Assembly: GCF_003231495.1 (NCBI RefSeq)
Contig: NZ_PQWO01000014.1
Location: forward strand, 1-32,000
Direction of reading: 5' to 3'
DNA: 32,000 nt
Origin: Acaryochloris thomasi RCC1774
Lineage (GTDB): Bacteria > Cyanobacteriota > Cyanobacteriia > Thermosynechococcales > Thermosynechococcaceae
Positions 14,197 to 32,000 of the stretch are shown in pieces (positions within the stretch are counted from its first letter, which is position 1; every line of letters starts with the position of its first letter). The notes under the pieces were generated by a model, which searched no databases, was not told where the DNA came from, and saw only the letters and a program-made list of their open reading frames with translations. A program made the translations under genes and the position numbers.

Positions 14197-14216
14197 AATG
14201 TATACGTGTATACATT
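14197..14216. repeat. Perfect 9-bp inverted repeat with 2-nt spacer (AATGTATAC GT GTATACATT)
   Basis: Read directly from the sequence. It lies in the 865-bp AT-rich gap, about 390 bp upstream of the first island gene. Confidence 0.8.
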
Positions 14217-14608
14217 CTATATTCGAGGTGAGCGTGTAAAGTAATCACCTAATGTCAGTTAGCTCAGTTAGCTTAAATAAATTCCTCAGCATCATTCCGA
14301 GTTGAAAAGCATCTAAAGCCCGGGTAGTTAGAGTTTTAACTAACGTATCTACTATTCAAAATGTTTCAATAAATAATTTTTATCTAAGTGGTCTAGCACG
14401 CTTCATTATTTACCTTGCCCCCGCCTTCTCAAGCTTTTCCAGTAAGGCAGCCTACTCTTGCTGCATAGACTAGTTTTCTTTATAAGTAATATTCACGGTT
14501 AATAGGAGTTCGCCTCGAAAGCCTTTTAATACTATCCTTGTATCTAAAATTTCGTTAACCAGCAAAATATTTCTTGGATTTAGCAATCCGTAGCCATGAG
14601 TGAAGTCA

Positions 14609-15463
14609 ATGACGCTATCATCCTCTACCTTATCTCCTTCTCATTCAGCCACACGCGAGCCTGTTATTGAAGCCTATCTTTTAGAGCGTCGCATAACATT
14701 TATGACAACTCCTACATTAGTGAATGTCATCAGCGATATGTGCACATGTGGCAAGAAGTTTGTGGTCGCTAACTACAACGTTCACGGTTTTAATCTTTCA
14801 ATGCAGTTGCCATGGCTCGATGGCTTTCACAAGACTGCAAACATCACCCACTGTGATGGGATGGGAATCATAAAACTGGTCAATATTTTAGGACTCAAGC
14901 TGCCAAAAGAGTATAAAAATTCATACACACTTTTGATGCCTGAGCTTTTAGAGCGATGCAACGAGAGGCAATTCTCAGTCTACCTTCTGGGAGGGAAGCC
15001 AGAGCAGCTCACGAATGCCCTCATTAATTTAAAGAACAGATATAGTGAAGCTCATTTCTCAGGACATGACGGCTACTTTTCGGTCCATGATTCTAATCGA
15101 AACGAAAGCATAATCAACGAGATTAATGCGATTAAACCAAATGTTTTGATTGTCGGCATGGGTATGCCTCTTCAAGAGCAGTGGGTTGACCTATACAGAG
15201 ATAGGATAGATGTTAATGCGATTATGCTAGGTGGAGCAGTAATTGATCGGTTCGCAGGTTTAGTTCCTGATTGTCCTCATTACATTTCGGATCTAGGACT
15301 AGAATGGTTATTCCGATTGCTAAGAGAACCAAGGCGACTGATGGGTCGTTACCTACTCGGAAATCCAGTCTTTTTATTGAATATTGCCTTGGCATCTGCC
15401 CTTGGAATTCGTCCTTTGACTATTGGTCGGGTTGATGAGAACTGGCAAGAGATTATTCCGTAA
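14609..15463 (+). CDS. WecG/TagA/CpsF-family glycosyltransferase
   Basis: ..THCDGMGII.., VYLLGGKPE.., IVGMGMPLQEQW and GLEWLFRLLREPRRL match the family pattern seen in E. coli WecG (GLEWLYRLLSQPSR). The start could be GTG 14600 or ATG 14609. Confidence 0.8.
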   Translation: MTLSSSTLSPSHSATREPVIEAYLLERRITFMTTPTLVNVISDMCTCGKKFVVANYNVHGFNLSMQLPWLDGFHKTANITHCDGMGIIKLVNILGLKLPKEYKNSYTLLMPELLERCNERQFSVYLLGGKPEQLTNALINLKNRYSEAHFSGHDGYFSVHDSNRNESIINEINAIKPNVLIVGMGMPLQEQWVDLYRDRIDVNAIMLGGAVIDRFAGLVPDCPHYISDLGLEWLFRLLREPRRLMGRYLLGNPVFLLNIALASALGIRPLTIGRVDENWQEIIP

Positions 15464-15591
15464 GTAAGTTCCTGAAATGAGAGGATTGAAGCATTGCCTA
15501 TAATTGGGCCATCTTTGTCGACGCATACATCCACGCTGTCTTTCCCCACTGATGTTGATTTTCTAGAAAACAAACGACGTGAACCTAAATT

Positions 15592-16581
15592 ATGGTTTTT
15601 GATTCCAAAGTCAGCATTATAATTCCGGCATTTAATGTTGCATCTTATCTTCAATCAGCTCTTGAGTCCGTTGAAAGGCAGTCCTACCAAAACTTCGAAG
15701 CAATTGTTGTTAACGATGGCTCAACTGACAATACGGCTGAGATAGCTAGCTCCTTTTGTGAGTGTGACAGCAGATTTCACCTGCTATCTAAACCGAATGG
15801 TGGACTTTCATCTGCGAGGAACTATGGCATCAGACACAGTCAGGGAGAGTACATTGCTCTTTTAGATGGTGATGACGTCTATGAACCCGATAAATTACTC
15901 AATCACGTTTTTCATCTAGATCGATTGCTTAATGTGGGTGTTGTTTACAGTGCTTCAAGAGCCATTCGTGAAGATGGGCAGTCTACGCCAATGTACTTGA
16001 GCGGAAAACCTGTTAAACAGAATGACTTGGCAGCGCTTTTGTGTAAGAACTTTGTAGGTCATGGCTCCAATAGTATATTTCGCCGCTGTATTTTTGAGGA
16101 GATAGGTGAATTTGATGAAAGACTTAAAAGCTGTGAAGATTTAGATTTTTGGTTGAGAGTTGCTTCGGCTGGGCGGTGGCAGTTTTACCGCGAGTCAAAA
16201 ATTTTATGTCAGTATCGAGTGCGCCCATCTGGTCTTTCTTTTAATGTGACAGAGATGCAGCGCTGCAACGAAAGAGTGCTTGAAATGGCCCGTAACAGAA
16301 TGCCTAGCCTAGTCGAACCACTTCTCCCAACAGCTAATGCTTACATGTATCGCTATCTAGCACGTTTATCCTTGACTGCGGGCAATATAGGTGATGCTCG
16401 TAAATTTATTGACAAAGCATTATCATCTGATCGTTCTATCTTTCTTCTCGACTGGCGATCTTTCCTCACCCTTATGTCAGTTCGCTTAGCTCCCATCTCT
16501 AAGATAATGCTTCACTTAGCCTTGGGTTCACATAAGTCTCTAAGCCAGACGCCTTTGATTAGCCTTAACCAAAAAAGATAA
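15592..16581 (+). CDS. Family 2 glycosyltransferase
   Basis: VSIIIPAFNVASYLQSALESVERQSYQNFEAIVVNDGSTDNT, plus GEYIALLDGDD (DxD). Confidence 0.85.
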   Translation: MVFDSKVSIIIPAFNVASYLQSALESVERQSYQNFEAIVVNDGSTDNTAEIASSFCECDSRFHLLSKPNGGLSSARNYGIRHSQGEYIALLDGDDVYEPDKLLNHVFHLDRLLNVGVVYSASRAIREDGQSTPMYLSGKPVKQNDLAALLCKNFVGHGSNSIFRRCIFEEIGEFDERLKSCEDLDFWLRVASAGRWQFYRESKILCQYRVRPSGLSFNVTEMQRCNERVLEMARNRMPSLVEPLLPTANAYMYRYLARLSLTAGNIGDARKFIDKALSSDRSIFLLDWRSFLTLMSVRLAPISKIMLHLALGSHKSLSQTPLISLNQKR

Positions 16582-16699
16582 GTATTATTTCTAGAGTATC
16601 AAGTCTACTGTCTCATGACTTTTTTATCCACGAATGAGTCTCTTTACTTGAACCAGATTCCAACAAGCTAATCCAAATTATAATGGAGACTTTGATATA

Positions 16700-17584
16700 G
16701 TGCAGTTAGCTTATGTTTCGGTAATTGTTCCGGTTTTTAATGATATAGAACGCTTGGAAAAATGCCTGAGGGCTTTGGAGGAGCAAACATATCCGAAGCA
16801 TCTATACGAAGTTATAGTCATTGATAATAATTCTGATGAGGATATTGAATGTTTAGTGGCTAGCTTCAAGCACGTAAAACTAAGCTTTGAAGCTAAGCAA
16901 GGTTCATATGCAGCAAGAAACAAAGGTATTTCCCTATCTGTGGGCGAAATATTCTCTTTTACTGATTCAGACTGTATACCTAGACCTCAGTGGATCGAGA
17001 AAGGAGTTGAAGCTTTAGAGTCCAATAATGCTGACTTAGTAGGTGGAAAAGTAGAATTCACATTCTCATCTGAAAGGACTGCTGCTGAAATTTATGATTC
17101 TGTGACAAATATGCAAATAGAAAAAAATATAGCTAGTAGAAAAATTAGCAAAACGGCTAATTTATTTGTTCGGAAAACTGTCTTCTCTGAAATTGGTTTA
17201 TTCCCAGGTAATCTTAAGTCAGGTGGAGATGTTATTTGGACTAAGAGGGCAACTGACGCAAATTTTTACTTAGTATACTCTTCTGAAGCATGTGTATTAC
17301 ATCCAGCACGTAAGCTAGTATCAATGCTCAGGAAACAGTATCGGGTCGGTTCTGGTCAACCGTCTATATGGCTAGAGCAAGGGCAGTCATTGACGCAAAT
17401 TTTTAGCAATATTATATTTGGGTTTAGACCTCCTTCACGCAAGCAAATTCAGCAAAACTGTATAGACCGTGCGCGTGAGATTCGCTCTAGCTACATATCT
17501 ATTTGGCGGGTTGCTTGGTTGTGTACTATCGCAACAAGCTTAGGACGTTTAAGTGGTTTTTTTATGTTTTATTCAGCGAAATGA
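16700..17584 (+). CDS. Family 2 glycosyltransferase (paralog of 25004-25960)
   Basis: VSVIVPVFNDIERLEKCL..QTY..YEVIVIDNNS and FTDSDC. GTG start with GGAGA upstream. Confidence 0.8.
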   Translation: MQLAYVSVIVPVFNDIERLEKCLRALEEQTYPKHLYEVIVIDNNSDEDIECLVASFKHVKLSFEAKQGSYAARNKGISLSVGEIFSFTDSDCIPRPQWIEKGVEALESNNADLVGGKVEFTFSSERTAAEIYDSVTNMQIEKNIASRKISKTANLFVRKTVFSEIGLFPGNLKSGGDVIWTKRATDANFYLVYSSEACVLHPARKLVSMLRKQYRVGSGQPSIWLEQGQSLTQIFSNIIFGFRPPSRKQIQQNCIDRAREIRSSYISIWRVAWLCTIATSLGRLSGFFMFYSAK

Positions 17585-18657
17585 AACTCTATGATTTTAT
17601 TGTTGAAAGTGCTAACTCGGCCCTGCCTTTTCAAAATAATTCGACAGGCAGTATGCCAGCGGGCCACAACGGTTTATACCATGACTTAGAAACTCCTGTA
17701 AGAAATACTTCACATTGGCTTATTACTTTTTTAAAGGCATATTCAATATCTCATGATCAGAGATTTCTCAGAGCTGCTGAGTTTTCAGCTCAGTACTTAT
17801 GTAAGAGTGAAGTAAGGCCAATGGGAGCCACATTTTGGCACCGCCAGAATCCTGAAAAAGATGCATGCAATGGTCTTATTGGTCAAGCGTGGACGATTGA
17901 AGCATTAGCAATAGCTGCTCAGAAACTGGAAATGCCTGAGTTGTTAGACTTGGCACAGGAAGTGTTTCTACTTCATCCATTTAATGAAGAAGCTGGGCTT
18001 TGGCAACGGGTTGGTGTTGATGGGAGTTACTTATCGTTCGATTTAACATTTAATCACCAGTTGTGGTTTGCTGCTGCAGGCAGTTTGATAGCAAAATATG
18101 GTTCTAGCGAAATTGATAGGCAGGTTCAGTGCTTTATCAGTAAGATCCCGAATCTCTTCAATACTTACGCTTCGGGGCTTATCTATCATTTGATTATTCC
18201 CAAGCCTGTAGGATTTCGGCAAAAACTTGTGAATCTAATTGAAGAGCAAAAGTCAATCCAGAAGCGTAAGATGTTGGCTTATAAAGCTATTGGATACCAT
18301 AGCTTTAACCTTTATGCTTTTGCACTGTTGAAGAATCAGTATCCAAGTCAAGAAATTTGGAGAAGCAAAAAAATTAAAAAATCTCTGTTATATGCTAAAT
18401 CAAGCCAGTACTTTAGAGATGTGCAGAATAACAAATATGGCTACCCATATAACCCTGCCGGGTTTGAAATACCTTTTTCTCTCCATGCCTTCAACGTTTG
18501 TGACCGATCAGAACAAGAAAAATGGATTTCTTCTCAATTTAATATATGTTTTGACTTCAGTGAGAATATGATGTCTAAGAATACAGACGATCCAAATACT
18601 CATTCTGCGAGAATCTACGAAGCAACAAGACTATCTAATATGGAGGTTGTAAGATAA
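17581..18657 (+). CDS. Uncharacterised 358-aa soluble protein; possibly an AglQ-like or alpha/alpha-toroid enzyme (weak recollection)
   Basis: ATG 17581 overlaps the preceding stop (ATGA), implying translational coupling. Motif GSMPAGHNGLYHDLETPVRNTSHW and NGLIGQAWTIEAL. No confident family assignment. Confidence 0.6.
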   Translation: MKLYDFIVESANSALPFQNNSTGSMPAGHNGLYHDLETPVRNTSHWLITFLKAYSISHDQRFLRAAEFSAQYLCKSEVRPMGATFWHRQNPEKDACNGLIGQAWTIEALAIAAQKLEMPELLDLAQEVFLLHPFNEEAGLWQRVGVDGSYLSFDLTFNHQLWFAAAGSLIAKYGSSEIDRQVQCFISKIPNLFNTYASGLIYHLIIPKPVGFRQKLVNLIEEQKSIQKRKMLAYKAIGYHSFNLYAFALLKNQYPSQEIWRSKKIKKSLLYAKSSQYFRDVQNNKYGYPYNPAGFEIPFSLHAFNVCDRSEQEKWISSQFNICFDFSENMMSKNTDDPNTHSARIYEATRLSNMEVVR

Positions 18658-19079
18658 CTGCGTCTCATCAGCTTCAAGATATGCGAACGTTTTTTCTATT
18701 TAATTGGACTCAGTTTTGTCGATTTTGATAGAATCTTGCGTATTGCTTATATAAGATGAGAATATGCCTCACCTCTAATGTGATTAAGCAGTAAAAATGA
18801 GATTTTGATAATGTATTATTGTGATTTTATGCCGATTTCGCCTATGTTTTTTTGATTGGTTGCAGCCCTTTAATTATAGTGCTGTGAAAAGAGTTATCTC
18901 TTTTAATCTAAGCATTCTGTAACAAAAAAATTATCTATTCGTGTAATTCAGCACTCCATTGAAAAAGAACTAAAAGCTCAATCCTGTCGTTTCTGGTATA
19001 CCTCTTAATCTTTTTTGCACTTGTTTGTAAAAGAGACTCGCCGCTTCTTGCTGAATACTTTGCATGCTTACACTCGCCT

Positions 19080-20603
19080 ATGAGTCATCCTTCTACACAT
19101 ACTAAGTACAGTGAGTATTTTAATACTTCAAATCTTAAGGCTGACTTGAAAGAGCGCTCTATTCGTAGTGGCGCAGTTACGATTACATCTCAGTGGTTTC
19201 AGTTTGTCCTACGGATGGGATCAACGGTTTTTTTGGCTCGTTTATTGAGCCCTGAAGACTATGGTTTGATTGGGATGGTAGCTATCCTCACTGGTTTTGT
19301 TCAACTCTTCAAGGATCTAGGATTATCTGCAGCTACAGTACAGAAAAAGGAAGTCGATCATCAGCAAGTTAGTACTCTGTTTTGGATCAATCTTGGCGTC
19401 AGCTGCTTAGTTGCTTTTGTTGTTGCAGCTCTTGCTCCTATCTTAGCCTTGTTTTATCAAGAGCCACGACTGCTTTGGGTCACGCTGGCACTTTCGACTA
19501 ACTTCATTTTCGGTGGATTGACCGTGCAGCATCAGGCTTTGATGAGGCGGCAGATGCAGTTTACTAACTTAGCTAGGATCGGCATTTGTTCGGTAGCTGT
19601 AGGCTTAATTGTAAGCATTACTATGGCTTGGCTAGGTGCTGGATACTGGGCATTGGTCGGAATGCAGTCTGCAAGCTCGATGACCACTGCAGTGTTCACA
19701 TGGATCGAATGCAAATGGCGACCAGAAAGGCCCACACGTAGATCAGATATTAGAGATATGTTAGCCTTTGGTGGAAATTTGACGGGGTTTCGCACACTAA
19801 ATTACTTTTCTCGTAATCTGGATAATCTTTTAATTGGGCGGTTCTGGGGTGCAACAGAGCTAGGCCTGTACGCGAAAGCGTATCAATTAGTTTTACTTCC
19901 GATCCAACAGATAAATTCTCCTGTTAATAATGTCGCGATGCCAACTCTCAGTAGTTTGCAGGATGACCCGGAAAGATATAGTCGGTACTATTACAAAGCC
20001 ATCCTGCTTATTACTAGTCTGGGAATGCCGATTGTGGCGTTTATGTTTGCCTCATCTGATAAGCTGATACTACTTTTATTGGGTGAGCGATGGATTGATG
20101 CAGTTCCTATCTTTAGACTTCTAATACCTGCAGCTTATATTGCTACCTTCAATGTAGCGACGGGCTGGGTCTATCAGTCATTAGGTAGAACTGATCGTCA
20201 ACTTCGATGGGGTGTTATTGGTTCGATATTAAATGCGTTGGTATTTATGGCTGGAGTCCGTTGGGGGGCTATCGGTGTTGCAGCAGTATTTGGGATGACG
20301 AGACCATTATTTTTTTTCCCTGCTCATATCTACTGTTTTCAGGGGACGCCTATTAAGTTCAAAAGCTTCTTGTCTGTTCTAGCAAGACCGACTATTGCTT
20401 CTATTGGTGCCGCTGGGTTGCTTATGGTTTTTCACAAGGTAGGCATCACACAGCATAGCAGCATCGGAGTGCTATTGCTCGATATAGCTTCATACATAGT
20501 GCTTTACCCTCTTCTCTGGATAGGTCTTCCGAACGGCAGAAGGCGTTTCATGGAAATTTTGGGTATATTCAGTAGTCTTAGAAAGAAGAGAAAAAAGATC
20601 TAG
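19080..20603 (+). CDS. wzx: Wzx-type oligosaccharide-unit flippase (MOP/PST superfamily)
   Basis: 507-aa polytopic protein. LRMGSTVFLARLLSPEDYGLIGMV..LFKDLGLSAATVQKKE is the canonical N-terminus of PST-family flippases. Confidence 0.85.
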   Translation: MSHPSTHTKYSEYFNTSNLKADLKERSIRSGAVTITSQWFQFVLRMGSTVFLARLLSPEDYGLIGMVAILTGFVQLFKDLGLSAATVQKKEVDHQQVSTLFWINLGVSCLVAFVVAALAPILALFYQEPRLLWVTLALSTNFIFGGLTVQHQALMRRQMQFTNLARIGICSVAVGLIVSITMAWLGAGYWALVGMQSASSMTTAVFTWIECKWRPERPTRRSDIRDMLAFGGNLTGFRTLNYFSRNLDNLLIGRFWGATELGLYAKAYQLVLLPIQQINSPVNNVAMPTLSSLQDDPERYSRYYYKAILLITSLGMPIVAFMFASSDKLILLLLGERWIDAVPIFRLLIPAAYIATFNVATGWVYQSLGRTDRQLRWGVIGSILNALVFMAGVRWGAIGVAAVFGMTRPLFFFPAHIYCFQGTPIKFKSFLSVLARPTIASIGAAGLLMVFHKVGITQHSSIGVLLLDIASYIVLYPLLWIGLPNGRRRFMEILGIFSSLRKKRKKI

Positions 20604-21085
20604 GACTACGGCTTTTGTTGTGCTTTGCAATAGAAATAAAATCTGAAATTTGCGTGACATTATGAATTTTCTCTTGAGACATATTTTTTCCTTGCCATCG
20701 TTTCTTTTATCTGGTGATGTAAGCAATGTTATTTGTCAATCAAGATAAGACTCAGTACGAGAAAAATTTACTCTCGTTGAAGGATGCTTAAGATGATAAG
20801 TAGACAACTTTATGAAATCGGGCCGAGCTACTTCTCCTGTTGCGTTGAATAAAAAATCACTCTGACTCTTGTCGCGAGCACACGAATGTTTCAAATTGCT
20901 CATTTAGATGAGGATGTACAATTTAAAGTCGTTCTTAATTCGCTGAAATATATGCTTATTAATCAATTGTCGTTAGCTTGAAATGTTATTCAACATAGAT
21001 GCAAATGGGGATCTCAAATATAGAATAAATCACGGAGAAAAAATAGCCGCTACTTGGTACATCAAGTGCTAGGACCCCGCTAGTG

Positions 21086-21274
21086 GTTATAACCAATACT
21101 CCGGACAGTTTTCGGAACGCAGCCATAAGCCTTTCAGCATATGAAGTATAGAAAATATCGAATTAAATGCAACTCAGGGTCAGACCTGACTTTGAGTTAA
21201 TGATCCTTGGTACACCCTAACCCTAGGGGGATGGTTATCCAGCCTCTAAAAAAGTGTCCGGACTATTGTATAAC
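21086..21274. repeat. MITE-like element: imperfect terminal inverted repeats about 147 bp apart
   Basis: GTTATAACCAATACTCCGGACA (21086-21107) versus the reverse complement of 21255-21274, GTTATACAATAGTCCGGACA. That is 19 of 20 matches with one 2-nt indel. No ORF lies inside, and I could not identify a target-site duplication. Confidence 0.35.
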
Positions 21275-21397
21275 AGCAACTGGAGGTTCATAAAATGTCA
21301 AGTCAAAATAGAGAATGTTAAAAGTAAAGATAAAAAATACTTTCATTATGTTCTAGAGCCTCTGTTACAGTAAAATGTTGAGCTTTGTTAAAAAACT

Positions 21398-22603
21398 ATG
21401 AAGCAACATCCAATCTTTATTGTCGGGGCACCTCGATCAGGCACGACACTACTTTCAGCTTTGCTGTCAAGCCATAGTCGAATTGCTTGTGGGCCTGAAT
21501 CACATTTTTTTAACAAGCTTGCTTCTAAAGAGATAGACGACGCTATTCAAGATGATAACTGGCCAAACAAAGCAGTGAGCTTGCTGACTTCCACTAAACT
21601 ATCAGGTCAATGTGTTTATGAACTTTTTGGCTTGAAATCTGACGATATTAGAGTCTATCTTACAAATCGATCTCCTTCTTTGAGAGTGCTACTGGAAGCT
21701 CTCACCGTTCAGCATGCTCATAAACTAGATAAGGTTCGTTGGGCTGAGAAAACACCAAATCACTTACTTTGCCTCCCATTGATTCGCAGCACCTTTCCCG
21801 GGTCACCGATCATCCGAATTATTCGTGATCCGAGAGATTCGGCAATGTCTATGCGCAAGCTGCCATGGGCTAGTCAGTCAATCTTGGCAAATTGCTATTT
21901 GTGGGATGCATGGTTCTCTTCAAGTCATGAATTTTGTGTTCGGGATGAAGAGACGCTAACTATCCGATATGAAGATTTAATTCTAAGTCCGAAAACTGTT
22001 CTTAGCAAAATCTGCTGCCATATTGGAGAGAGCTTTGAAGAAAATATGCTAGACACCTCAGAAACAGCCAGGATTGTAAGCTCACCGAATGAGTTTTGGA
22101 AAACTCAGGTTGCGGATCCTCTAGATCTAGATCGTTTATATGTGTGGAAAAGGGAACTTCCTAAACAGCTTTTGAAGCCTACTACTTATGCTTGTCAATA
22201 TGGAATCGAGACTTTTCAGTATGAACAAGCATCGCCTCCAAAGTCTCTTTACTTTTTATATTGCCTAGATCGAGATTTCATTGAGATGAATGAGGCTTCT
22301 ATTATAGAATCTTCGAATAATGGTATGGAATTTATTCAAGTTCAAAAAATCAAAGTTCTTGAGCATACTGATTTGGGTGCTGGAACGTTCTTTGTCTGCA
22401 AGTTGCCTGATTTGGAAGATGAGTTTCTTGAAAAGGTACTGTCCCTCTTGAAGTTTTTTTTGTACTTGCTTATCAATCGAATGAGAGGGCACTCAATTGC
22501 TTGTCCGGAAGATTATCTGGATTTAAGAAAAGCTAAGGGATTGAGTAATTTTTGGCGCATATTCTTTCTTAAAATACTCGGATCGAAAGCAGCTTCGATA
22601 TAG
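21398..22603 (+). CDS. Sulfotransferase (PAPS-dependent, Sulfotransfer_1/3-like) with a C-terminal extension of unknown function
   Basis: IFIVGAPRSGTTLLSALL is a 5'-PSB P-loop-like motif. IIRIIRDPRDSAMS is a 3'-PB motif. Residues from about 260 to 401 have no recognisable motif. Confidence 0.8.
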   Translation: MKQHPIFIVGAPRSGTTLLSALLSSHSRIACGPESHFFNKLASKEIDDAIQDDNWPNKAVSLLTSTKLSGQCVYELFGLKSDDIRVYLTNRSPSLRVLLEALTVQHAHKLDKVRWAEKTPNHLLCLPLIRSTFPGSPIIRIIRDPRDSAMSMRKLPWASQSILANCYLWDAWFSSSHEFCVRDEETLTIRYEDLILSPKTVLSKICCHIGESFEENMLDTSETARIVSSPNEFWKTQVADPLDLDRLYVWKRELPKQLLKPTTYACQYGIETFQYEQASPPKSLYFLYCLDRDFIEMNEASIIESSNNGMEFIQVQKIKVLEHTDLGAGTFFVCKLPDLEDEFLEKVLSLLKFFLYLLINRMRGHSIACPEDYLDLRKAKGLSNFWRIFFLKILGSKAASI

Positions 22604-22647
22604 AAGCAGATTTATATTTTGAGACTGTTATACAGGAATAGTATCGC

Positions 22648-23403: not shown

Positions 23404-23431
23404 ATTGTAGTGGACACCGAACCTGAGATAT

Positions 23432-24577: not shown

Positions 24578-24731
24578 GGCAGCGAATAAATTCTACTCAT
24601 GCCTCAGTTTTAAAACGCTGTTTCAAAACGTCTTGTCAGTGTAGAAATATCTTCTGCTTCTCAGAGCCTTTTCTGCATGCTTTATGCCGCAGCTGAGATA
24701 CTATGCTGGGGCGTAATTTTTGTCCAGCCTT

Positions 24732-24751
24732 TGATGATTTGTAAATCATCA
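24732..24751. repeat. Perfect 9-bp inverted repeat with 2-nt spacer (TGATGATTT GT AAATCATCA)
   Basis: Read directly from the sequence. It lies in the 426-bp gap, about 250 bp upstream of the 25004 gene. Confidence 0.8.
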
Positions 24752-25003
24752 TGCAAAAGTATTTCAGTAAAGCGAACACATTGTAGTCTACCAGGCTTAC
24801 ATCTGCTTTCTTGTCTGGCCCTTAAAAAATATTCCGATTTTTTCAAACTTTATTTTGAACATGGTATATCTGGCTACTTAGTTCTTAAGCAAGATATTGA
24901 TAAGTTAGTGGTTGTGGTAAGTTATCTGCTGGATAGTTCATATGCTTGACTTAGAGATAGGTCAAGTTGACGTCTGATTATCAAAGATTAACTTATTCGT
25001 TCG

Positions 25004-25960
25004 ATGGATGCCAAGCGGAGTGGTATGCCCATTATGCTTAAAGTTAAAGTACCTCAGCCATACGTTTCCGTCATTATTCCAGTCTTTAATGACTCAGCTC
25101 GTTTAAAGAGATGTTTACAGGTCCTGGATGGACAAACCTATGCCAGGGAGCGGTACGAAGTGATCGTGGTCGATAATGCCTCAGAGGAGAGTGTTGTGGA
25201 CCTTTTGGCTCAGTTCGTCCAGGCTGTGTCGGCTTACGAAGGTCAGCAGGGTTCTTATGCAGCGCGCAATAGGGGTTTGTCTCTAGCTAAGGGAGAAATC
25301 ATTGCTTTCACTGATTCTGACTGCGTACCTGCTTCTGACTGGATTGAAAGCGGTGTCACTGCGCTCTTACAGGATCAAGACTATTCAATTGTTGGAGGCA
25401 GAATAGAGCTTTTCTTCAGAAATTCAGATCAGTTAACACCTGCTGAACTATATGAGGACTTAACAGCTTTTCCGCAGAAGCAGCACATTGAAAAATCAAA
25501 TTTTTCGCCAACAGCAAATCTATTTACATATAGAAGAGTTTTTGATGAATGTGGCGTCTTCAATCAAGAGCTTAAATCAAATGGCGATCGCGAGTGGTGC
25601 CAATCTGTTGTTCGCCAAGGATGTTCAATTAGATATGATGAGAAAGTTGTGGTTCAGCATCCGGCACGACATTCATTTCTGCAGCTTTATCGACGCCATT
25701 TGAGAATGGCTGGTGGTCGAGCTGATGCGTATAAAGAGAAGTTTAGCAACAGAAGATTTCAGTTGGTCAAAAATATTCTTTTGAACGAGATTCTTCCTGA
25801 TGCCTTTTTGATGATAAAGGATTTCTTGGTCATTATCTTGCGGCGAAAGTACTCAGCTTTTGAAAAAGCTCAAATAGTTTTAGTTTCATCCTTGCTACGC
25901 CATGCTAGGAGTTGGGAAAAGGTGCGAGTCATTATGGGTGGAACATCCAGAAATTTCTAG
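25004..25960 (+). CDS. Family 2 glycosyltransferase (paralog of 16700-17584)
   Basis: VSVIIPVFNDSARLKRCL..QTY..YEVIVVDNAS, QGSYAARNRG and FTDSDC. The start could be ATG 25004 or 25025. Confidence 0.8.
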   Translation: MDAKRSGMPIMLKVKVPQPYVSVIIPVFNDSARLKRCLQVLDGQTYARERYEVIVVDNASEESVVDLLAQFVQAVSAYEGQQGSYAARNRGLSLAKGEIIAFTDSDCVPASDWIESGVTALLQDQDYSIVGGRIELFFRNSDQLTPAELYEDLTAFPQKQHIEKSNFSPTANLFTYRRVFDECGVFNQELKSNGDREWCQSVVRQGCSIRYDEKVVVQHPARHSFLQLYRRHLRMAGGRADAYKEKFSNRRFQLVKNILLNEILPDAFLMIKDFLVIILRRKYSAFEKAQIVLVSSLLRHARSWEKVRVIMGGTSRNF

Positions 25961-25990
25961 AGACGTCCAGCAGCTCAGGAGAGAATTATT

Positions 25991-26965
25991 TTGGGATCAT
26001 CTATTGTCAGCGTTGTCATCCCGACTCGTAATCGACCGGAGCTAGTCAAAAGGGCAGTGCATAGTGCCTTGGCCCAGACATTGGAGAAGATTGAGGTCTG
26101 TGTTGTGATTGACGGTCCAGATCCAGAAACATTTTCCGAACTATCTAAGTGTTCTGACTCACGGCTACGAGTAATCCAGCTTGCATCTAACAAAGGAGGT
26201 GCAGGTGCCCGCAACGAAGGTATTTCAAAGTCACAATCAGAATGGATTGCCTTTTTAGATGATGATGATGAGTGGCTTCCCCAAAAACTAGAGTGTCAGC
26301 TTGAAGCCGCTACGGCTTCTCAATATCAGTGGCCCATTATTACCAGTTTTGTAACTGCAAGAACGCCGAAAGGTGAGTTTACTTATCCTCGTCGGTTACC
26401 GCGTCACTCTGAAGACCTCAGCGAATATCTCCTAGCGCGGAATACACTTTCCTACGGAGAAGGCTTGATTCAGACGTCCACAATTTTAACAAAGAGGGAA
26501 CTTTTGCTGACCGTTCCTTTTCGGGAAGAGCTACCCAAGCATCAGGATTGGGACTGGATACTGCACGTTCATTCATTAGAAGGCGTAGCAGTGGAGTTTG
26601 TACCCGAAGCGCTAGCGGTTTGGCATCTATGGGAACAGCGAGCAAGCACGAGCGGCAACAGCAACTGGGAAAATTCACTCGATTGGATTCAGCAGAATCA
26701 GCATTTGATTACCCCTAGAGCCTATGCCGCTTTTGTGCTAGTGGAGGTCGGATCACAGGCAGCACACACTCGTCGATGGGCCGCATTTTGGCAGCTTTTA
26801 TTGGAGGCGTTCCGACTGGGTAAACCGAAACCTATTGATCTCTTTGTATTTATGGGGATGTGGATAGTTCCTCAAGAGCTACGGCGTTCTATGAAAAGTT
26901 TGCAGAGCAAAGCAGCTCAAAAGTTGAGTCACTTACCGTCACTAAAGGCAGATGCTACAGGCTAG
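25991..26965 (+). CDS. Family 2 glycosyltransferase
   Basis: VSVVIPTRNRPELVKRAVHSALAQT, VIDGPD, GAGARNEG and AFLDDDDEW. TTG start with AGGAGA 7 nt upstream. Confidence 0.8.
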   Translation: MGSSIVSVVIPTRNRPELVKRAVHSALAQTLEKIEVCVVIDGPDPETFSELSKCSDSRLRVIQLASNKGGAGARNEGISKSQSEWIAFLDDDDEWLPQKLECQLEAATASQYQWPIITSFVTARTPKGEFTYPRRLPRHSEDLSEYLLARNTLSYGEGLIQTSTILTKRELLLTVPFREELPKHQDWDWILHVHSLEGVAVEFVPEALAVWHLWEQRASTSGNSNWENSLDWIQQNQHLITPRAYAAFVLVEVGSQAAHTRRWAAFWQLLLEAFRLGKPKPIDLFVFMGMWIVPQELRRSMKSLQSKAAQKLSHLPSLKADATG

Positions 26966-28289
26966 TCACTCACCATTGAGGCGTCGTCACGTAGTCCCTG
27001 ACTCTGAGCTTGGGCAATTGTCCCGCGCGGAGCGGATAATTTATTGGACAATTTTGCTCACCCCTCTATGGTGGGTGTTAGGGATACAGCCTTTATTATT
27101 CCCTGCAGTTGTGATCGGCTTACTGGCTAGCTCCTTTGATGCTGATAAGTTGCTAAGAATTCCTCTCCCCCTTTGCATATGGGCATGGTTGGGTATGGGG
27201 ATCGTGATGCTCTGGACAGCCTTTACTGGCCTCAGTGAGCAGGGCTGGGATATATCGAAAGCAATTGCTACCGTGGTTACTTTCCTCAAGGGATACTTTC
27301 TGATTTTTGCCTGTTTTCTACTGCCTATGTGGAATCGCGTCAGAGTGGCGGTTATTACGAGAGCAGTAGTTTGGATGACCAGCGGTTATCTAATTAGCCT
27401 TACCGTTCAGATTACCTTGCTGTTCCTGGGCCTCAGCAGGGCGTTCTCTCCACCGTGGGCGCGATTTATGCCCGGTAATCCCTTGAGTTTTAGGGTCAAT
27501 GCTGCTACTTTTCAGCCTTTTTTCGGTATCCCTCTTCCAAGAACTCCTCTTTATATGCCTGACCCGCCAATCCTAGGAATTTGTGGCCTGCTTTGTTTCT
27601 TAATTTGTCTGGGTGAGCCTAATCATCGGCTGCGTCAACTCGGCATGGCCGGGAGTCTGTCAGCACTCATCATCAGTCAGAGCCGTTTGGGCTGGATCTG
27701 CTTACCTATTGCCTTGCTAATCATTGCTTTATTCCGCAGCCCAATTGCTCGGCAGGGGGCTATTTGGGTCTCAGCCTTGATCTCTTTATTATGTACCTTG
27801 CTAGGAGGATTAACGCTCTCAGAGCTATTGAATAAGCCCCTCACAGTTTTCACAAATGCCCGACCGGCATCCTCAACAGATAGAGAATTCGTTGTTCGCA
27901 AGACCCTTGAAGCATGGCAAGAATCCCCCTGGCTTGGCTGGGGGGTTGCTCATGATTCAGCCAAATGGCATACCTTTGAGATCACCCTCGGCTCGTTCTC
28001 GAGCTATGCTGGCGTGCTTTATCTGCATGGGATTTTGGGGTTTGTCTGTCTGATAACTGCAATAGGATCCACACTATGGCATTTCCTACTGCCAGCACTA
28101 AGAGGTAATCTGCTTTGTAAAAAAGCATTTGCGAGCGTTGTTGCCCTCAGCCTGTTTATGGAAGGTATTCCCCTTTCTTGGATGGCCGTATATTTCTGGT
28201 ATTTTCTGATTTGGCTAGGCGCTATTATTTCTCAGCAAAAGCAAGAGAAAAATTCAATGAAAAAGCTCGAGAACTTCAGCCCAATTTAA
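26952..28289 (+). CDS. O-antigen-ligase-family membrane protein, likely the Wzy-type repeat-unit polymerase
   Basis: 445-aa protein with about 10-12 TM segments. GSLSALIISQSRLGWICLPIALLIIALF resembles the Wzy_C core. The start overlaps the preceding gene by 14 nt. Confidence 0.7.
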   Translation: MLQASHSPLRRRHVVPDSELGQLSRAERIIYWTILLTPLWWVLGIQPLLFPAVVIGLLASSFDADKLLRIPLPLCIWAWLGMGIVMLWTAFTGLSEQGWDISKAIATVVTFLKGYFLIFACFLLPMWNRVRVAVITRAVVWMTSGYLISLTVQITLLFLGLSRAFSPPWARFMPGNPLSFRVNAATFQPFFGIPLPRTPLYMPDPPILGICGLLCFLICLGEPNHRLRQLGMAGSLSALIISQSRLGWICLPIALLIIALFRSPIARQGAIWVSALISLLCTLLGGLTLSELLNKPLTVFTNARPASSTDREFVVRKTLEAWQESPWLGWGVAHDSAKWHTFEITLGSFSSYAGVLYLHGILGFVCLITAIGSTLWHFLLPALRGNLLCKKAFASVVALSLFMEGIPLSWMAVYFWYFLIWLGAIISQQKQEKNSMKKLENFSPI

Positions 28290-28311
28290 CTCTTTAAATT
28301 CAAAAAAATCT

Positions 28312-29157
28312 ATGACGATCTATTCAGAAACATCCCGAAAAATAAAGCGACTAAAATCAGTTCTAGAAGATATTGCTTTAGAAAAAGGAATAGTCAATAA
28401 GCACCATAGTTATACGAAGTTTATCATTCTTTGTCGAAGCCGTGTTGGCTCCAACTTGTTGCTTAATCTTCTGCAATCTCATAAGAATACTAGATTATTC
28501 TATGAGCTATTTAGCACAGCCCACAGCGACAAAACTCATTGGGATTTTGTTAATCATAATATTGATGATGTTATGCAGGTGAAGAAAAAGGATCCAACTG
28601 GCTTCATCGATGATTTTGTATTTCGTCCTATGCCACACTCAGTTCATGCAGTTGGATTCAAAATATTTTACTATCATGCCTCCTCGGGAAAAGAAAAATG
28701 TATCTGGGAACACTTAAAAAACATGGATGGCATGAGGATTATTCATCTGAAGAGAAACAATATATTGAAGTCGTTGCTTTCAAGAACAGTGGCTCAGAGG
28801 ACTGGCTCTTGGGTTAAGCAGTCACTCCACAAAACAGATTCCAGCCAATCAAAATCAGTTGAGTTTGACTACAATCAACTCCTTTATTCTTTTGAAAGCA
28901 CTAAGAGAATGGAACAAGAGTACGAAAGATTCTTTAAAAAAAATCCATTAATGAATATTACATATGAAGATTTATTGATGGAACCCTTGAGCGAGTTAAA
29001 AAGAATCTTAGACTTCTTGAGCTTGGATTTTCAGACTCTGAAAATATCTACCAAAAAGCAATCATCTGATAAGAGTCTGTCTAACGCTATTGTGAATTAT
29101 TCCGAATTAAAACAAAAGTTCTCCGGTACTCCTTGGAAAATTTTCTTTGAGGAATAA
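28312..29157 (+). CDS. Sulfotransferase, NodH/Stf0-like
   Basis: KFIILCRSRVGSNLLLNLL (5'-PSB-like, RxGS) and IIHLKRNNILKSLLSRTVAQRTGSW (the NodH-type R.N....S....A..TG.W). Confidence 0.7.
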   Translation: MTIYSETSRKIKRLKSVLEDIALEKGIVNKHHSYTKFIILCRSRVGSNLLLNLLQSHKNTRLFYELFSTAHSDKTHWDFVNHNIDDVMQVKKKDPTGFIDDFVFRPMPHSVHAVGFKIFYYHASSGKEKCIWEHLKNMDGMRIIHLKRNNILKSLLSRTVAQRTGSWVKQSLHKTDSSQSKSVEFDYNQLLYSFESTKRMEQEYERFFKKNPLMNITYEDLLMEPLSELKRILDFLSLDFQTLKISTKKQSSDKSLSNAIVNYSELKQKFSGTPWKIFFEE

Positions 29158-29168
29158 TAGCTGTACTT

Positions 29169-29717
29169 ATGTTGACTGAAGATTATTCTAATTTAAAGAG
29201 ATTAATTTATCTCTTCTTTGAGATTAAGCGTTGGTTTTATCAATTTCAATACCCCAATCTCACTCTTGAAAAAGGCGTATTAATTAAAGGTTCTATCAAG
29301 ATAGAAGGCAGCGTTAAGGTGAATATTGAGACCGGGACGCGCATCAGTAAACAAGTTAAAATATTTGGTGGCGGGGAGGTTGTGGTAGGTCGAAATGTAT
29401 CGCTCAATGGATGTTGGATTGGTTGCCAATGCTCAGTTCTAATCAGTGATGACTGTCTGATTTCTGATTGCTATCTGCTCGACTCTGATTATCATAACCT
29501 TGAGCCACATCTGCGGCATAGTCATGCCGGACCAAAGGTTTCAGCTCCAATTGTACTCAAGCCTAATGTGTGGGTGGGAGCAAATGCTACCGTAATGAAA
29601 GGAGTACACATCGGAGAGAATAGCGTTGTAGGTTTAGGGAGCGTTGTTAGAGAAACTGTTCCTGCTAATGTTGTCGTGATTGGAAATCCCCAACAGATTT
29701 TAAAGTCTCTTAAGTAA
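29169..29717 (+). CDS. Hexapeptide-repeat (left-handed beta-helix) O-acetyltransferase
   Basis: NVWVGANATVMKGVHIGENSVVGLGSVVRETVPANVVVIGNPQQIL is the typical C-terminus of WbbJ/MAT-type acetyltransferases. Confidence 0.8.
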   Translation: MLTEDYSNLKRLIYLFFEIKRWFYQFQYPNLTLEKGVLIKGSIKIEGSVKVNIETGTRISKQVKIFGGGEVVVGRNVSLNGCWIGCQCSVLISDDCLISDCYLLDSDYHNLEPHLRHSHAGPKVSAPIVLKPNVWVGANATVMKGVHIGENSVVGLGSVVRETVPANVVVIGNPQQILKSLK

Positions 29718-29887
29718 GAAGGCTTAGTCCTATGATTTTGGGAGTTAAAAAAGTATATGGGATAGAAAAACGTTGAGTTATTGCACAACGCTTGCTTCTG
29801 ATCACTGCTGTTTTTTGCTCAATTATTATCTGCATCATACATGCATCTGTAATGTACCTCATATCTTAGAAGGTTTAGTTTTACAAC

Positions 29888-31975
29888 ATGAACTTAATCA
29901 TTACTATTTTTAGGCATAGCAAGTTTATCATTCTGTGGAATGTTCTGGTACTCCTGTTTTTCTTGCAAGCTTGGAAGGGTGCCGCTAAGTCATGGACAGC
30001 TACAACAAAATTTGCTTTGCCGCAGACAACGAGTACTTTGAGTGCAGACCTTGGAACACTTGGGTCACTTAGAGGAGGAGATCCAAGCTTCTCTGCTGTT
30101 GTCAATCCACTCAAAACTCAAGAGGAGATTCTATCGAGTGATAACTTATTAGAAAAGGCGTTGAAGCTAGATCCAGAGTCTGAAAATTTTTCTGGGGTAA
30201 GTCAGTATAGAAATCTCTTTGAAGTGATTTTGGTCGAAAAGTCTAATGTATTTTCCATCGATGCCAAAGGCTCTAGCCCTGGAGTCGCACTTCAAAGAGC
30301 TAAAGTTCTAGCGCAAGTTTACCAAAAACACTTGAACTATTTACGTAAAGCGGATGTGGCTGGCCGGAACTCGTTTTACCAAAATGACCTAAAACGAGCA
30401 AGTCAAAGGTTAGCAGATGCGGAATCTGCCTTGGCAAGCTATCAAAAAGCTTCAGGATTAGTTAGTAGCGAAGAACAAACTGGTCAGACAGTTTCTCTGA
30501 TATCTGAATTAGAGAAAACTTTAGCGCTTACAATTGCCGAGTCCAATAAAGATGCCAGTCAAGTTCAGGAGCTATCAAGTCAGCTAGATCTTCTGCCTAG
30601 AGAAGCCGTTAGCTCTGTAAGTTTAGATGAAAATAGTAGCTATCAGCTTGTCCGTCAAAAGCTAACTGAACTAGAATCCGAGTTGAAGGCGCAGCGGGCT
30701 CAGCTCACAGAGAGCCATCCATCAGTACAAACCCTAGTTTCGAATCGTGATGGGCTACTACGCCAACTATCTCAGTATGTTGATCATTCAGAAATTCAGA
30801 ATGGCGATGGTGTTATTGCAAGTGGAGCTGAGGGGCAAAACGAAATCATTGAGCAGATTATACTTCTGAAAAGTAGCGCTATTGGAAAACGTCAGCAAGC
30901 CCAGGATATTCAGTCAAAAATTAATTCACTTCGGGTTAAGTTAGGGTCTCTCCCAAATCAGCAATCCCGTCTCGCTGTTTTGCAGAGAAACCTAAACGTT
31001 AGTAAAGGAATCTTTAACGGACTAATCGCACAAATTGAAAAGAGCAAAGTGGATGCCTTCCAGAGTTATCCTAGTGTTCAGTTATTAAATACTCCTACCC
31101 TAAATCCTGCGCCTATCTCTAATCGACTTCTAATTTCGATTAATGCACTATTCGCCTCAGCTCTTGGGAGTCTTGGCTTACTACTTTTGTTAGAGGGGCG
31201 CAACCCACTTCTTAGGCCAAAAGATCTAGAAGGCGCTTCCTTCCCATTAGCAACTCGAATCCCTAAATTGCGACGCCAACTGCACAAAGCTAGTGATAAT
31301 ATTCAATCTCTTAGGGGTGGTGAAACAGCTTTTTTGCAGCTGGCTTATGGAATTCTGACGCAAGAGATTTCTGATCGTTGTCTAATGGTAGTAAGCGCAA
31401 TGTCTAAGGAAGGGAGGACAACTATATCCCTCCATCTAGCCCAAGCTTTGAGGGATTTAGGTTTAAAAGTATTGATTTTGAGTGAACGTTCATCTCAAAA
31501 TGTTAAGAGGCGAAAAAAGACAGATCAGATACCAGCACTAGGCTCCATGTCTAGCCGAGCCTTAAAAAACTTCCCTTCACAGAAGCTACTTACTAGTAAA
31601 TCGAAAGAGGCAGGGGTTCAAGTTATTGATTTCAATTTCTCGAGTCGCGACGACTTTAAGGAACAAATGCATCTTATTCTTAAATCTGAGATCTATGATT
31701 TCATAATTGTTGATGCGCCTCCTGTTCAATCAAGTAGCATAACAACTTTAATGTCTACTGTGATTACAAATATTTTGTTAGTTGTTCGCCCTGGAAAAAG
31801 TACGCGTTTTTCTGTGAGAGACTCACTTCAACTTTTGTTCCAGAGTCAGTTGAATTCTGTTGGTTTAGTTATTAACGATCCTGGCTATTTGGGGCTGTCA
31901 GATAGAACGGGATGGGAGCAAGATTTTATTGGTGTTTCTTCTAATAAATTTAATTCCTTGACTGTGGCTCCATAG
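29888..31975 (+). CDS. Wzc/GumC-like polysaccharide co-polymerase (PCP-2a architecture) with a degenerate C-terminal P-loop domain
   Basis: N-terminal TM helix, a long coiled-coil periplasmic region, and a second TM (LLISINALFASALGSLGLLLLLEG). The C-terminal domain has SAMSKEGRTT at the Walker A position, VLILSERSS at Walker A', and a conserved Walker B (YDFIIVDAPP). There is no C-terminal Tyr cluster. Confidence 0.8.
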   Translation: MNLIITIFRHSKFIILWNVLVLLFFLQAWKGAAKSWTATTKFALPQTTSTLSADLGTLGSLRGGDPSFSAVVNPLKTQEEILSSDNLLEKALKLDPESENFSGVSQYRNLFEVILVEKSNVFSIDAKGSSPGVALQRAKVLAQVYQKHLNYLRKADVAGRNSFYQNDLKRASQRLADAESALASYQKASGLVSSEEQTGQTVSLISELEKTLALTIAESNKDASQVQELSSQLDLLPREAVSSVSLDENSSYQLVRQKLTELESELKAQRAQLTESHPSVQTLVSNRDGLLRQLSQYVDHSEIQNGDGVIASGAEGQNEIIEQIILLKSSAIGKRQQAQDIQSKINSLRVKLGSLPNQQSRLAVLQRNLNVSKGIFNGLIAQIEKSKVDAFQSYPSVQLLNTPTLNPAPISNRLLISINALFASALGSLGLLLLLEGRNPLLRPKDLEGASFPLATRIPKLRRQLHKASDNIQSLRGGETAFLQLAYGILTQEISDRCLMVVSAMSKEGRTTISLHLAQALRDLGLKVLILSERSSQNVKRRKKTDQIPALGSMSSRALKNFPSQKLLTSKSKEAGVQVIDFNFSSRDDFKEQMHLILKSEIYDFIIVDAPPVQSSSITTLMSTVITNILLVVRPGKSTRFSVRDSLQLLFQSQLNSVGLVINDPGYLGLSDRTGWEQDFIGVSSNKFNSLTVAP

Positions 31976-32000
31976 AAATTCTGCCTACAGTATGCATCAA

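Follow-up and report, generated by a model that had tools for sequence, protein, structure and literature searches.

A predicted sulfated, O-acetylated polysaccharide locus of Acaryochloris thomasi RCC1774 with an AglQ/Agl32-family gene and three sulfotransferase genes

A 32,000-nucleotide stretch of the genome of the marine cyanobacterium Acaryochloris thomasi RCC1774 (the window) carries on its forward strand, from position 14600 to 31975, 14 intact co-directional genes and a relic of the C-terminus of a GT4 glycosyltransferase (GT), as defined by open reading frame (ORF) calling and Pfam (Table 1). We consider it probable that this locus is a horizontally acquired, mosaic cluster of the Wzx/Wzy-dependent type, and that it builds a sulfated, O-acetylated heteropolysaccharide, be it exopolysaccharide (EPS), capsule or sheath. 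It encodes a GT26, four GT2 and a GT4 glycosyltransferase, a Wzx flippase, a Wzy polymerase, a polysaccharide co-polymerase (PCP), a hexapeptide acetyltransferase, an AglQ/Agl32-family protein and three sulfotransferases (ST-A, ST-B and ST-C) of the type dependent on 3'-phosphoadenosine 5'-phosphosulfate (PAPS). A first-pass annotation, made from the DNA letters, had described fifteen co-directional genes for a sulfated, acetylated EPS made by a Wzx/Wzy pathway; the common direction holds and the count resolves into the 14 genes and the relic. With the exception of the PCP, every family named there, i.e. the six glycosyltransferases (WecG/TagA type, four GT2, GT4), Wzx, the Wzy-like protein, the hexapeptide acetyltransferase and the sulfotransferases, clears its Pfam gathering threshold. 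The gene families behind the proposed polymer therefore stand, while the choice of EPS is too narrow, as released EPS, capsule, sheath and O-antigen are not distinguishable from sequence. The most distinctive component of the locus is a gene that had been left without assignment, a predicted epimerase gene of AglQ/Agl32 type, whose family has until now been investigated in halophilic archaea alone. Its product, like ST-A and ST-B, is 100% identical to a hypothetical protein of A. thomasi RCC1774 (C1752_04445, with C1752_04447 for ST-A and C1752_04448 for ST-B).

The AglQ-like protein has no match in Pfam or NCBIfam, and its assignment comes from homology and fold. Several of its 1419 homologs are named 'agl cluster protein AglQ' by NCBI, and it aligns end to end with AglQ of Haloferax denitrificans (162 of 357 residues, 45%; tblastn E 8e-105), which itself carries all 16 of the residue positions published for Hfx. 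volcanii AglQ. The mutagenesis-sensitive AglQ residues T38, K52 and K93 are kept at the same numbers in the window protein, and in a set of 30 homologs T38 never varies while K52 and K93 reach at least 90% conservation. An AlphaFold2 model (pLDDT 92.4, pTM 0.92) shows a single (alpha/alpha)6 barrel for which Foldseek returns 5zig, 3vw5, 3wkf, 2afa and 3wiw (E 3e-5 to 2e-4), the best structural matches being AGE-family and cellobiose 2-epimerases and an unsaturated glucuronyl hydrolase. The same structural neighbours are published for Agl32 of Halobacterium (PMC12624080, PMC13308652). Homology and model together indicate that the window protein is a true member of the AglQ/Agl32 family. Agl32 converts glucuronic acid (GlcA) to iduronic acid (IdoA) on a dolichol-linked tetrasaccharide, as established by nuclear magnetic resonance (NMR) and genetics, and its loss greatly lowers sulfation; it lacks the catalytic residues of GLCE, and those of known epimerases are not conserved in it (PMC12624080, PMC13308652). 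Homology of the window protein to GLCE itself (PF06662) was considered and rejected, given the lack of any Pfam match and the position of GLCE outside the top 50 Foldseek matches. PF06662 is precomputed for 3 of the 120 AglQ-like homologs listed.

Family membership does not settle the reaction, which is not readable from the sequence; the archaeal homologs make the protein a candidate epimerase. Its identity to Haloferax AglQ (45%) is close to that with a Halobellus rufus member (42%), the latter two being mutually 41% identical. The Halobellus ORF (L079; the prefix L numbers the related loci that we retrieved) belongs to a species for which an Agl32 homologue has been reported, and it may be that protein. 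A neighbour-joining tree of 71 family members is star-like and places the cyanobacterial clade with neither the AglQ nor the Agl32 lineage. It is conceivable, though we think it the less likely course, that the protein is no epimerase, and either trims glycans after the fashion of hydrolases or lyases or works on a neutral sugar. The likeness to epimerase-sulfotransferase pairs would in that case be fortuitous, while the other parts of the locus would function as described. The fold is common also to glucuronyl hydrolases: the top Foldseek match is a heparin-specific unsaturated glucuronyl hydrolase, with GH76 and GH105 also listed, the original AglQ paper remarked on a resemblance to hydrolases and lyases, and the missing epimerase residues of Agl32 point the same way. 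Nor is there in-cluster support for a supply of uronic acid, as the UDP-glucose dehydrogenase Ugd is missing from the 25 commonest of the 59 Pfam families found in 82 neighbouring ORFs, otherwise unassigned, of 12 related cyanobacterial loci, a census from which a single copy could escape and which is neutral to slightly negative for a uronate substrate. Set against these points are the conversion of GlcA to IdoA demonstrated for Agl32 and the retention of T38, K52 and K93. In EPS clusters the enzymes that trim the polymer usually work in the periplasm, whereas the window protein has no N-terminal signal peptide obvious by eye and its gene is tightly coupled in bacteria to that of a cytoplasmic GT2.

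This coupling is seen in the window, where the stop codon of GT2b overlaps the ATG start of the AglQ-like gene by 4 bp, and in L006, L008, L010, L012 and L016 the AglQ-like gene is immediately preceded by a GT2b ortholog (55-59% identity). In L006 and L008 an ortholog of GT2c (47-57%) comes right after the AglQ-like gene. GT2b and GT2c are paralogs, 42% identical over 241 residues, which flank the AglQ-like gene on either side in related clusters, and this suggests a duplicated glycosyltransferase pair around the predicted epimerase. A profile scan of genomes finds AglQ-like homologs in cyanobacteria, Balneolaceae, Bacteroidota, anammox bacteria, haloarchaea and methanogens. The family extends beyond the archaea: its full-length homologs of 40-59% identity (L008-L087, methanogens included) are encoded nearly always beside GT2 genes, with Algoriphagus, Brocadia, Scalindua, Chloroflexota and SAR202 among the bacterial carriers. 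Of the 13 cyanobacterial loci, 12 have a P-loop sulfotransferase gene no more than 10 kb from the AglQ-like gene; among the 67 others the number is at most 13, with none in archaeal loci. These are raw counts over loci gathered with the AglQ-like query, with kinship ignored. The sulfotransferase gene immediately precedes the GT2b-AglQ pair in eight or more of the cyanobacterial loci. Sulfotransferase-GT2-AglQ is, as judged by gene order, a conserved module in cyanobacteria. A full-text literature search found no publication tying an AglQ-type or C5-epimerase gene to cyanobacterial sulfated polysaccharide clusters.

The first-pass annotation had named three sulfotransferases with PAPS-binding motifs, and this is borne out, as all three score above their Pfam thresholds and their motifs align to those of TPST2 (ST-A), HS2ST (ST-B) and NodH (ST-C). 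In ST-A the 5'-phosphosulfate-binding (5'-PSB) motif PRSGTT and the 3'-phosphate-binding (3'-PB) motif RDPRDS align to TPST2, and the protein aligns also with protein-tyrosine and CurM sulfotransferases. It has a C-terminal extension of ~130 residues (about 270-401) with no Pfam match, common to its closest homologs (P0002-P0008, 98-100% query coverage) and lacking in most family members (63-80%). ST-C has its best match in the Protein Data Bank (PDB) with a structure deposited as 'LPS sulfotransferase NodH' (8.9e-8), aligned over RSRVGS and KRNN..S, and its orthologs (46-47% identity) lie between Wzy and PCP in L006 and L008. The three had also been called unrelated. Pairwise BLASTP agrees in giving no significant match, its only alignment pairing 28 residues of ST-A with ST-C (E 0.38); an iterated hidden Markov model search, on the other hand, merges ST-A and ST-C, both of which match PF13469, and leaves ST-B (PF03567) alone separate. 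They are best described as three predicted subfamilies of one superfamily. No signal or membrane segment is obvious by eye at the N-terminus of any of them, and with the 5'-PSB and 3'-PB motifs kept all three are predicted to be PAPS-dependent.

ST-B had the weakest family assignment of the three, and its subfamily is small. PF03567 is passed by all six of the family members scanned, and orthologs were found in five cyanobacterial genomes and one Thermodesulfobacteriota metagenome-assembled genome (MAG; L064), with at least eight further 90% clusters in a large protein database, by a search of limited reach. A six-sequence alignment shows K20, G22, T24, S25, S86-G87-H88, R110, P112, R115 and S118 to be invariant; R110, P112 and S118 remain so in an alignment of nine. 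The family profile, searched against the PDB, finds chicken HS2ST at 3.4e-9 over the full length and then HS6ST at 1e-7. Foldseek with the AlphaFold2 model (pLDDT 84.9) likewise gives HS2ST as the top four matches and HS6ST as the next three, the rest having E > 1e-3. Profile and model thus identify the animal heparan sulfate (HS) 2-O- and 6-O-sulfotransferases as the predicted closest known relatives of ST-B.

Two further loci show ST-B homologs in other surroundings. The metagenomic locus L089 (ENA ERZ25067541 contig_150, 7635-19850) has five sulfotransferase genes among GT2 and GT4 genes (Sulfotransfer_3 twice, Sulfotransfer_2 twice and Sulfotransfer_4 once), one being an ST-B homolog, and no AglQ-like gene; the 346-residue gene product beside the ST-B homolog was considered as AglQ-like and rejected, having no similarity. 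In L090 (Logan SRR21285589_157811, 6790-10371) a distant ST-B homolog (34%) is encoded beside GH88 and alginate-lyase-family genes, the GH88 product being an unsaturated glucuronyl hydrolase with a Por secretion tail. These neighbours hint at an association of the ST-B subfamily with uronic-acid-containing polymers.

We tentatively put forward the idea that the cyanobacterial sulfotransferase-GT2-AglQ module does in bacteria what Agl32 does in archaea and parallels in function the animal GLCE/HS2ST pair. Cytoplasmic epimerisation would turn the GlcA of a lipid-linked unit into a different uronic acid, such as iduronic or galacturonic acid, which ST-B would then O-sulfate to give glycosaminoglycan-like sulfated uronates. 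The Agl pathway of Halobacterium salinarum, with the glycosyltransferases Agl25-28, the epimerase Agl32 (Q9HQQ1), the sulfotransferases Agl30/31 and the flippase Agl29, has the logic proposed here: a cytoplasmic lipid-linked oligosaccharide is assembled, its uronic acid is modified in situ, and sulfation and flipping follow. It differs from the window in that its product is an N-linked glycan on dolichol phosphate, moved by AglB, where we propose a Wzy-polymerised polysaccharide, and in that its sulfotransferases have a sulfatase/alkaline-phosphatase fold where those of the window have the PAPS P-loop fold. With the animal HS module (GLCE and HS2ST/HS6ST) ST-B shares the motifs PKxGxTS, GH and RxPxxRxxS, and in related clusters an epimerase-family gene stands beside that for an ST-B-type sulfotransferase, in a GLCE/HS2ST-like pairing. 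The animal enzymes, in contrast, work in the Golgi lumen on polymer already completed, where for the window a lipid-linked unit in the cytoplasm is proposed. ST-B is, moreover, only ~18% identical to HS2ST, so that acceptor specificity is not transferable, and the epimerase candidate is, as described above, of another family than GLCE.

The organisation of the locus indicates a composite origin. Collinear clusters occur in Hyella patelloides LEGE 07179 (L008), a Myxosarcina sp. MAG (L009) and GCA_017973915 (L006), in the order GT26-GT2a-Wzx-(acetyltransferase, in L008 only)-sulfotransferase-GT2b-AglQ-GT2c-GT2d-Wzy-ST-C-PCP. Ten orthologous genes are shared with the window at 47-62% identity (PCP 34-35%), and the local orders GT26-GT2a, GT2b-AglQ and GT2c-GT2d-Wzy-ST-C...PCP are the same. 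In these Hyella-type clusters Wzx and a gene for a 283-residue Sulfotransfer_3 protein (with the acetyltransferase in L008) lie between GT2a and GT2b, whereas in the window Wzx follows the AglQ-like gene, the 283-residue sulfotransferase upstream of GT2b is absent, and a block of ST-A, ST-B and GT4 has been gained between AT-rich gaps of 794 and 426 bp. ST-A (51-61%) and GT4 (49-50%, in L001 and L002) are orthologous to adjacent sulfotransferase-GT4 pairs in L001 and Synechococcus PCC 7335. ST-B has orthologs (54-55%) in Leptothoe and a Leptolyngbyaceae MAG (L010, L012), encoded immediately ahead of GT2b-AglQ. This spread of orthologs argues for a mosaic of at least three modules: the Hyella/Myxosarcina core, the ST-A/GT4 pair and ST-B.

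The 794-bp gap contains no forward-strand ORF of 60 or more residues, no Rfam match and no blastx or blastn match to the related loci; the deposited locus tags (04445 for the AglQ-like gene, 04447 for ST-A, 04448 for ST-B) leave one number for Wzx and none for a gap gene. The 426-bp gap holds the 90-residue ORF that we term the GT4 relic, which has no Pfam match and a weak blastx match (32% over 81 residues, to residues 311-386 of the L004/L005 GT4, E 1e-3, small database). Probably the scar of a recombination or a pseudogene fragment of a GT4, it was the only thing found when the intergenic gaps were compared by blastx and blastn with all fetched loci.

Base composition agrees with this origin. 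GC content falls from ~51% (window positions 1-14000) to ~40% (14000-32000), the step at position 14000 marking the left end of the locus, and within the locus it ranges from 34% to 48% per gene (GT2d and Wzy 48%, ST-B and ST-C 34-35%). The drop and the spread from gene to gene fit, and suggest, a composite island acquired horizontally from several sources.

Table 1. Predicted features of the polysaccharide locus, in window coordinates
Feature	Position	Strand	Basis or remark
GT26 (WecG/TagA/CpsF-family) glycosyltransferase	14600-15463	+	PF03808 Glyco_tran_WecG 2.9e-45
GT2a	15592-16581	+	PF00535 Glycos_transf_2 5.2e-39; 62% identity to same-position Hyella ortholog
GT2b	16700-17584	+	PF00535 1.2e-25; conserved upstream partner of AglQ-like gene
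AglQ/Agl32-family (alpha/alpha)6-barrel protein, predicted sugar (hexuronyl) epimerase	17581-18657	+	AglQ homology, fold
Wzx (MOP-family) flippase	19080-20603	+	Polysacc_synt_3 1.9e-98, Polysacc_synt 3.3e-42
Gap, 794 bp, 36% GC	20604-21397		Non-coding; left border of ST-A/ST-B/GT4 block
ST-A, Sulfotransfer_3/TPST-like	21398-22603	+	PF13469 9e-30, 105 bits
ST-B, Sulfotransfer_2 type	22648-23403	+	PF03567 8.4e-7, 29.8 bits, cutoff 22
GT4	23432-24577	+	Glyco_trans_1_4 3.2e-15, Glycos_transf_1 2.1e-13; partner of ST-A
Probable GT4 C-terminus relic, 90-residue ORF	24677-24949	+	In 426-bp gap 24578-25003, right border of block
GT2c	25004-25960	+	PF00535 4.1e-24
GT2d	25991-26965	+	PF00535 9.8e-29; 60-61% identity to Hyella and L006 orthologs
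Wzy-type polymerase (O-antigen ligase/polymerase superfamily)	26952-28289	+	Wzy_C 3.9e-14, 53.1 bits, cutoff 31.7
ST-C, NodH/Stf0-like	28312-29157	+	PF13469 Sulfotransfer_3 2.3e-11 (44.8 bits), PF09037 Stf0 6.2e-10
Hexapeptide-repeat (LbH) O-acetyltransferase, WbbJ/WcaF/LacA-like	29169-29717	+	Hexapep 6.7e-8
PCP, 695 residues, PCP-2a architecture, degenerate cytoplasmic ATPase/tyrosine-kinase domain	29888-31975	+	NCBIfam, cluster orthologs

The remaining components conform to the Wzx/Wzy scheme. GT26 matches TIGR00696 at 98.9 bits (cutoff 69) and is 48% identical to the product of the first gene of the Hyella cluster; it would probably add the second sugar, onto a lipid-PP-sugar primer whose maker is encoded elsewhere. 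None of the GT2 enzymes reaches the cutoff of an NCBIfam model, and their sugar specificities cannot be deduced in this way. Wzx is 61% identical to its Hyella counterpart and Wzy 55-56% to same-position orthologs in L006 and L008, the Wzy sequence fitting a polymerase and a ligase alike. The acetyltransferase is matched, in each case below the equivalog cutoff, by the NCBIfam models for WbbJ (1.2e-20), maltose O-acetyltransferase (6e-18) and WcaF (5e-15).

The co-polymerase needs more caution. It had been described as Wzc/GumC-like, and NCBIfam chain-length-determinant models (1e-18) together with full-length identity of 34-35% to the Hyella and L006 PCPs of the collinear clusters favour the PCP architecture; its Pfam scores, in contrast, all fall below the gathering cutoffs (Wzz 25.2 vs 25.5, GNVR 17.6 vs 27.7, AAA_31 22.1 vs 27) and its ATPase motifs are degenerate. 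Walker A reads KEGRTT, with Lys replaced by Arg and the first Gly gone, where the orthologs have GEGKTT, and the DxD of Walker A', DGD or DAD in the orthologs, is deleted. Walker B (IIVDAPP) is kept, and the tail has a single Tyr in place of the small C-terminal Tyr cluster (Y-x-Y-xxx-Y) of the orthologs. Intact motifs are found in the PCPs of Hyella, L006 and L015-L017. With Walker A, Walker A' and the Tyr cluster lost, the protein is predicted not to be a functional bacterial tyrosine kinase; it may nonetheless serve as a co-polymerase.

This degeneration and the GT4 relic bear on whether the pathway is fully active in RCC1774, and they are among the points that weigh against the locus as a working one. 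The relic and the long AT-rich gaps within the cluster (794, 426 and 422 bp) suggest recent rearrangement. As the first-pass annotation had already noted, none of the window ORFs has a Pfam match to a priming phosphoglycosyl transferase, be it of Bac_transf or WecA type, and the window contains no Wza-type outer-membrane polysaccharide export (OPX, Poly_export) gene, no UDP-glucose dehydrogenase or other nucleotide-sugar gene and no gene for PAPS synthesis. RCC1774 in culture grows in suspension, as planktonic cells without a visible matrix (PMC6002478). All this would fit a decaying or silent island, i.e. horizontally acquired genes whose pathway no longer yields polymer in this strain. We regard that as improbable, because all 14 genes are intact, full-length ORFs with catalytic motifs conserved, and because the Hyella-type clusters, whose PCPs are intact in Walker A and A', equally have no priming or OPX genes. 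Co-polymerases without kinase activity, such as the GumC-type PCP-2b proteins, are functional. The functional Synechocystis cluster xss, moreover, uses a chromosomal OPX (PMC8205485), and A. thomasi cells are described as covered by a fibrous sheath (PMC6002478), which could be the product of the locus. Elsewhere among the related clusters some carry a priming transferase, and some of the AglQ-containing cyanobacterial ones carry Wza/Poly_export.

A product in the form of lipopolysaccharide (LPS) O-antigen or of a protein- or lipid-attached glycan, with Wzy_C acting as a WaaL-type ligase or the sulfotransferases acting on a glycolipid in the manner of NodH/Stf0, is less likely still: Pfam Wzy_C spans ligases and polymerases, the PCP kinase domain is degenerate, and ST-C has the 'LPS sulfotransferase NodH' as its nearest solved relative and also matches Stf0 (trehalose sulfotransferase), whereas the predicted long PCP-2a architecture (GNVR, P-loop) is typical of capsule and EPS and not of O-antigen Wzz, orthologous clusters keep an intact kinase-type PCP, and related AglQ clusters carry Wza/Poly_export.

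The locus had also been thought to run off the right edge of the window. It probably does not extend far, as the PCP gene, 25 nt from the end, corresponds to the last biosynthetic gene of the collinear clusters, in which only a GH39 gene follows before unrelated genes begin. This GH39 gene (L006 17547-18935, L008 17542-18960) encodes a signal-peptide-like N-terminus, and the two copies are 65% identical. GH39 includes PslG-type EPS hydrolases, beta-xylosidases and alpha-L-iduronidase.

Among cyanobacterial sulfated polysaccharide pathways only that of xss, for synechan, has been dissected, other sulfotransferase clusters being known as gene lists. The xss genes of Synechocystis PCC 6803 lie on pSYSM (sll5042-sll5060) and include two sulfotransferases (Maeda et al. 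2021; PMC8205485). The first-pass annotation was right to name xss as the only dissected system; it also called bacterial sulfated polysaccharides rare. Sulfotransferase genes of PF00685, PF03567 and PF13469 occur widely in the Wzx/Wzy and ABC-type clusters of cyanobacteria, marine species above all, with 13 sulfotransferases in A. marina and 30 in Trichodesmium, most such clusters being 'more or less partial' (PMC8205485), so that the novelty of the locus had been overrated on this count. The comparison of gene content with xss that it proposed yields likeness at the level of class. Both loci have many glycosyltransferases, GT26, Wzx, Wzy, a PCP-2a-like protein, sulfotransferases of different subfamilies and no OPX gene inside the cluster. 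Protein by protein against pSYSM, however, best identities are 24-30% (GT26/XssN 30%, Wzx/XssH 25%, ST-A/XssE 24%, PCP/XssK 24%), the two are not orthologous, and a tblastn search of ST-A and ST-B against plasmids gives no pSYSM match at 1e-3. The priming transferase XssP, GT25 and the regulators XssQ/XssR/XssS have no counterpart in the window; the third sulfotransferase, the acetyltransferase and the AglQ-like gene have none in xss. Low temperature and iron limitation induce xss, and its transfer into Synechocystis or Synechococcus elongatus has a precedent (PMC13125312). Synechan contains essentially no uronic acid, and xss provides the precedent for cytoplasmic sulfation in a Wzx/Wzy pathway (PMC8205485).

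Outside the locus the window carries housekeeping genes: cobQ, nadC, a LysR regulator, tRNA-Val, crtB, pds, radical SAM and lipid-related genes. In this higher-GC flank crtB (phytoene synthase) and pds (phytoene desaturase) are adjacent on the reverse strand (6112-8509). Just upstream of the island (8911-13743) are genes for a radical SAM protein, an LPG_synthase_TM-family protein, a DUF2752 protein, a CarS-like protein (reverse strand) and a DAGK/YegS-type lipid kinase. The sole match of Rfam and tRNA scans of the window is tRNA-Val(GAC) at 5484-5557, which at ~9 kb from the island border marks no obvious integration site. Repeat searches of the window gave only short matches, as expected by chance. 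Promoter-like and terminator-like sites are no more frequent than in shuffled sequence, so operon boundaries cannot be drawn from them. No STAND/NACHT, histidine kinase or response regulator gene is present among the window ORFs of at least 100 residues that were scanned.

From these components we envisage a pathway in which a priming phosphoglycosyl transferase encoded elsewhere would make a polyprenyl-PP-sugar, to which GT26 and then the four GT2 enzymes and GT4 would add at the cytoplasmic face, giving a repeat unit of up to ~7 sugars; the enzyme families are those identified above, their order and sugars being our suggestion. The AglQ/Agl32-family protein, translationally coupled to GT2b, would epimerise a lipid-linked sugar, by analogy with its archaeal homologs most likely a hexuronic acid. 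Still in the cytoplasm ST-A, ST-B and ST-C, whose motifs indicate use of PAPS, would sulfate up to three positions, and the hexapeptide transferase would add O-acetyl from acetyl-CoA, the acceptors in both cases being conjectural. Following the xss and xanthan pathways, Wzx would flip the decorated unit and Wzy polymerise it, the PCP and an unlinked OPX providing length control and export.

Clusters of the Wzx/Wzy type that bear sulfotransferase genes were already known; the value added by this one lies in its AglQ/Agl32-family gene, a sulfotransferase resembling HS2ST and a modular, mosaic build. If the epimerase assignment is true it opens epimerised, sulfated uronic acids of bacterial polysaccharides to genetic study and extends a newly described archaeal enzyme family to bacteria, and the soluble cytoplasmic enzymes would be worth considering for the engineering of sulfated polymers, heparin-like ones among them. 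If the proposed coupling to ST-B is also true, marine cyanobacteria would make glycosaminoglycan-like sulfated uronates by a route undescribed in bacteria. The combination of a conserved core, a sulfotransferase-glycosyltransferase pair and a single sulfotransferase suggests that sulfation patterns may diversify by the swapping of modules.

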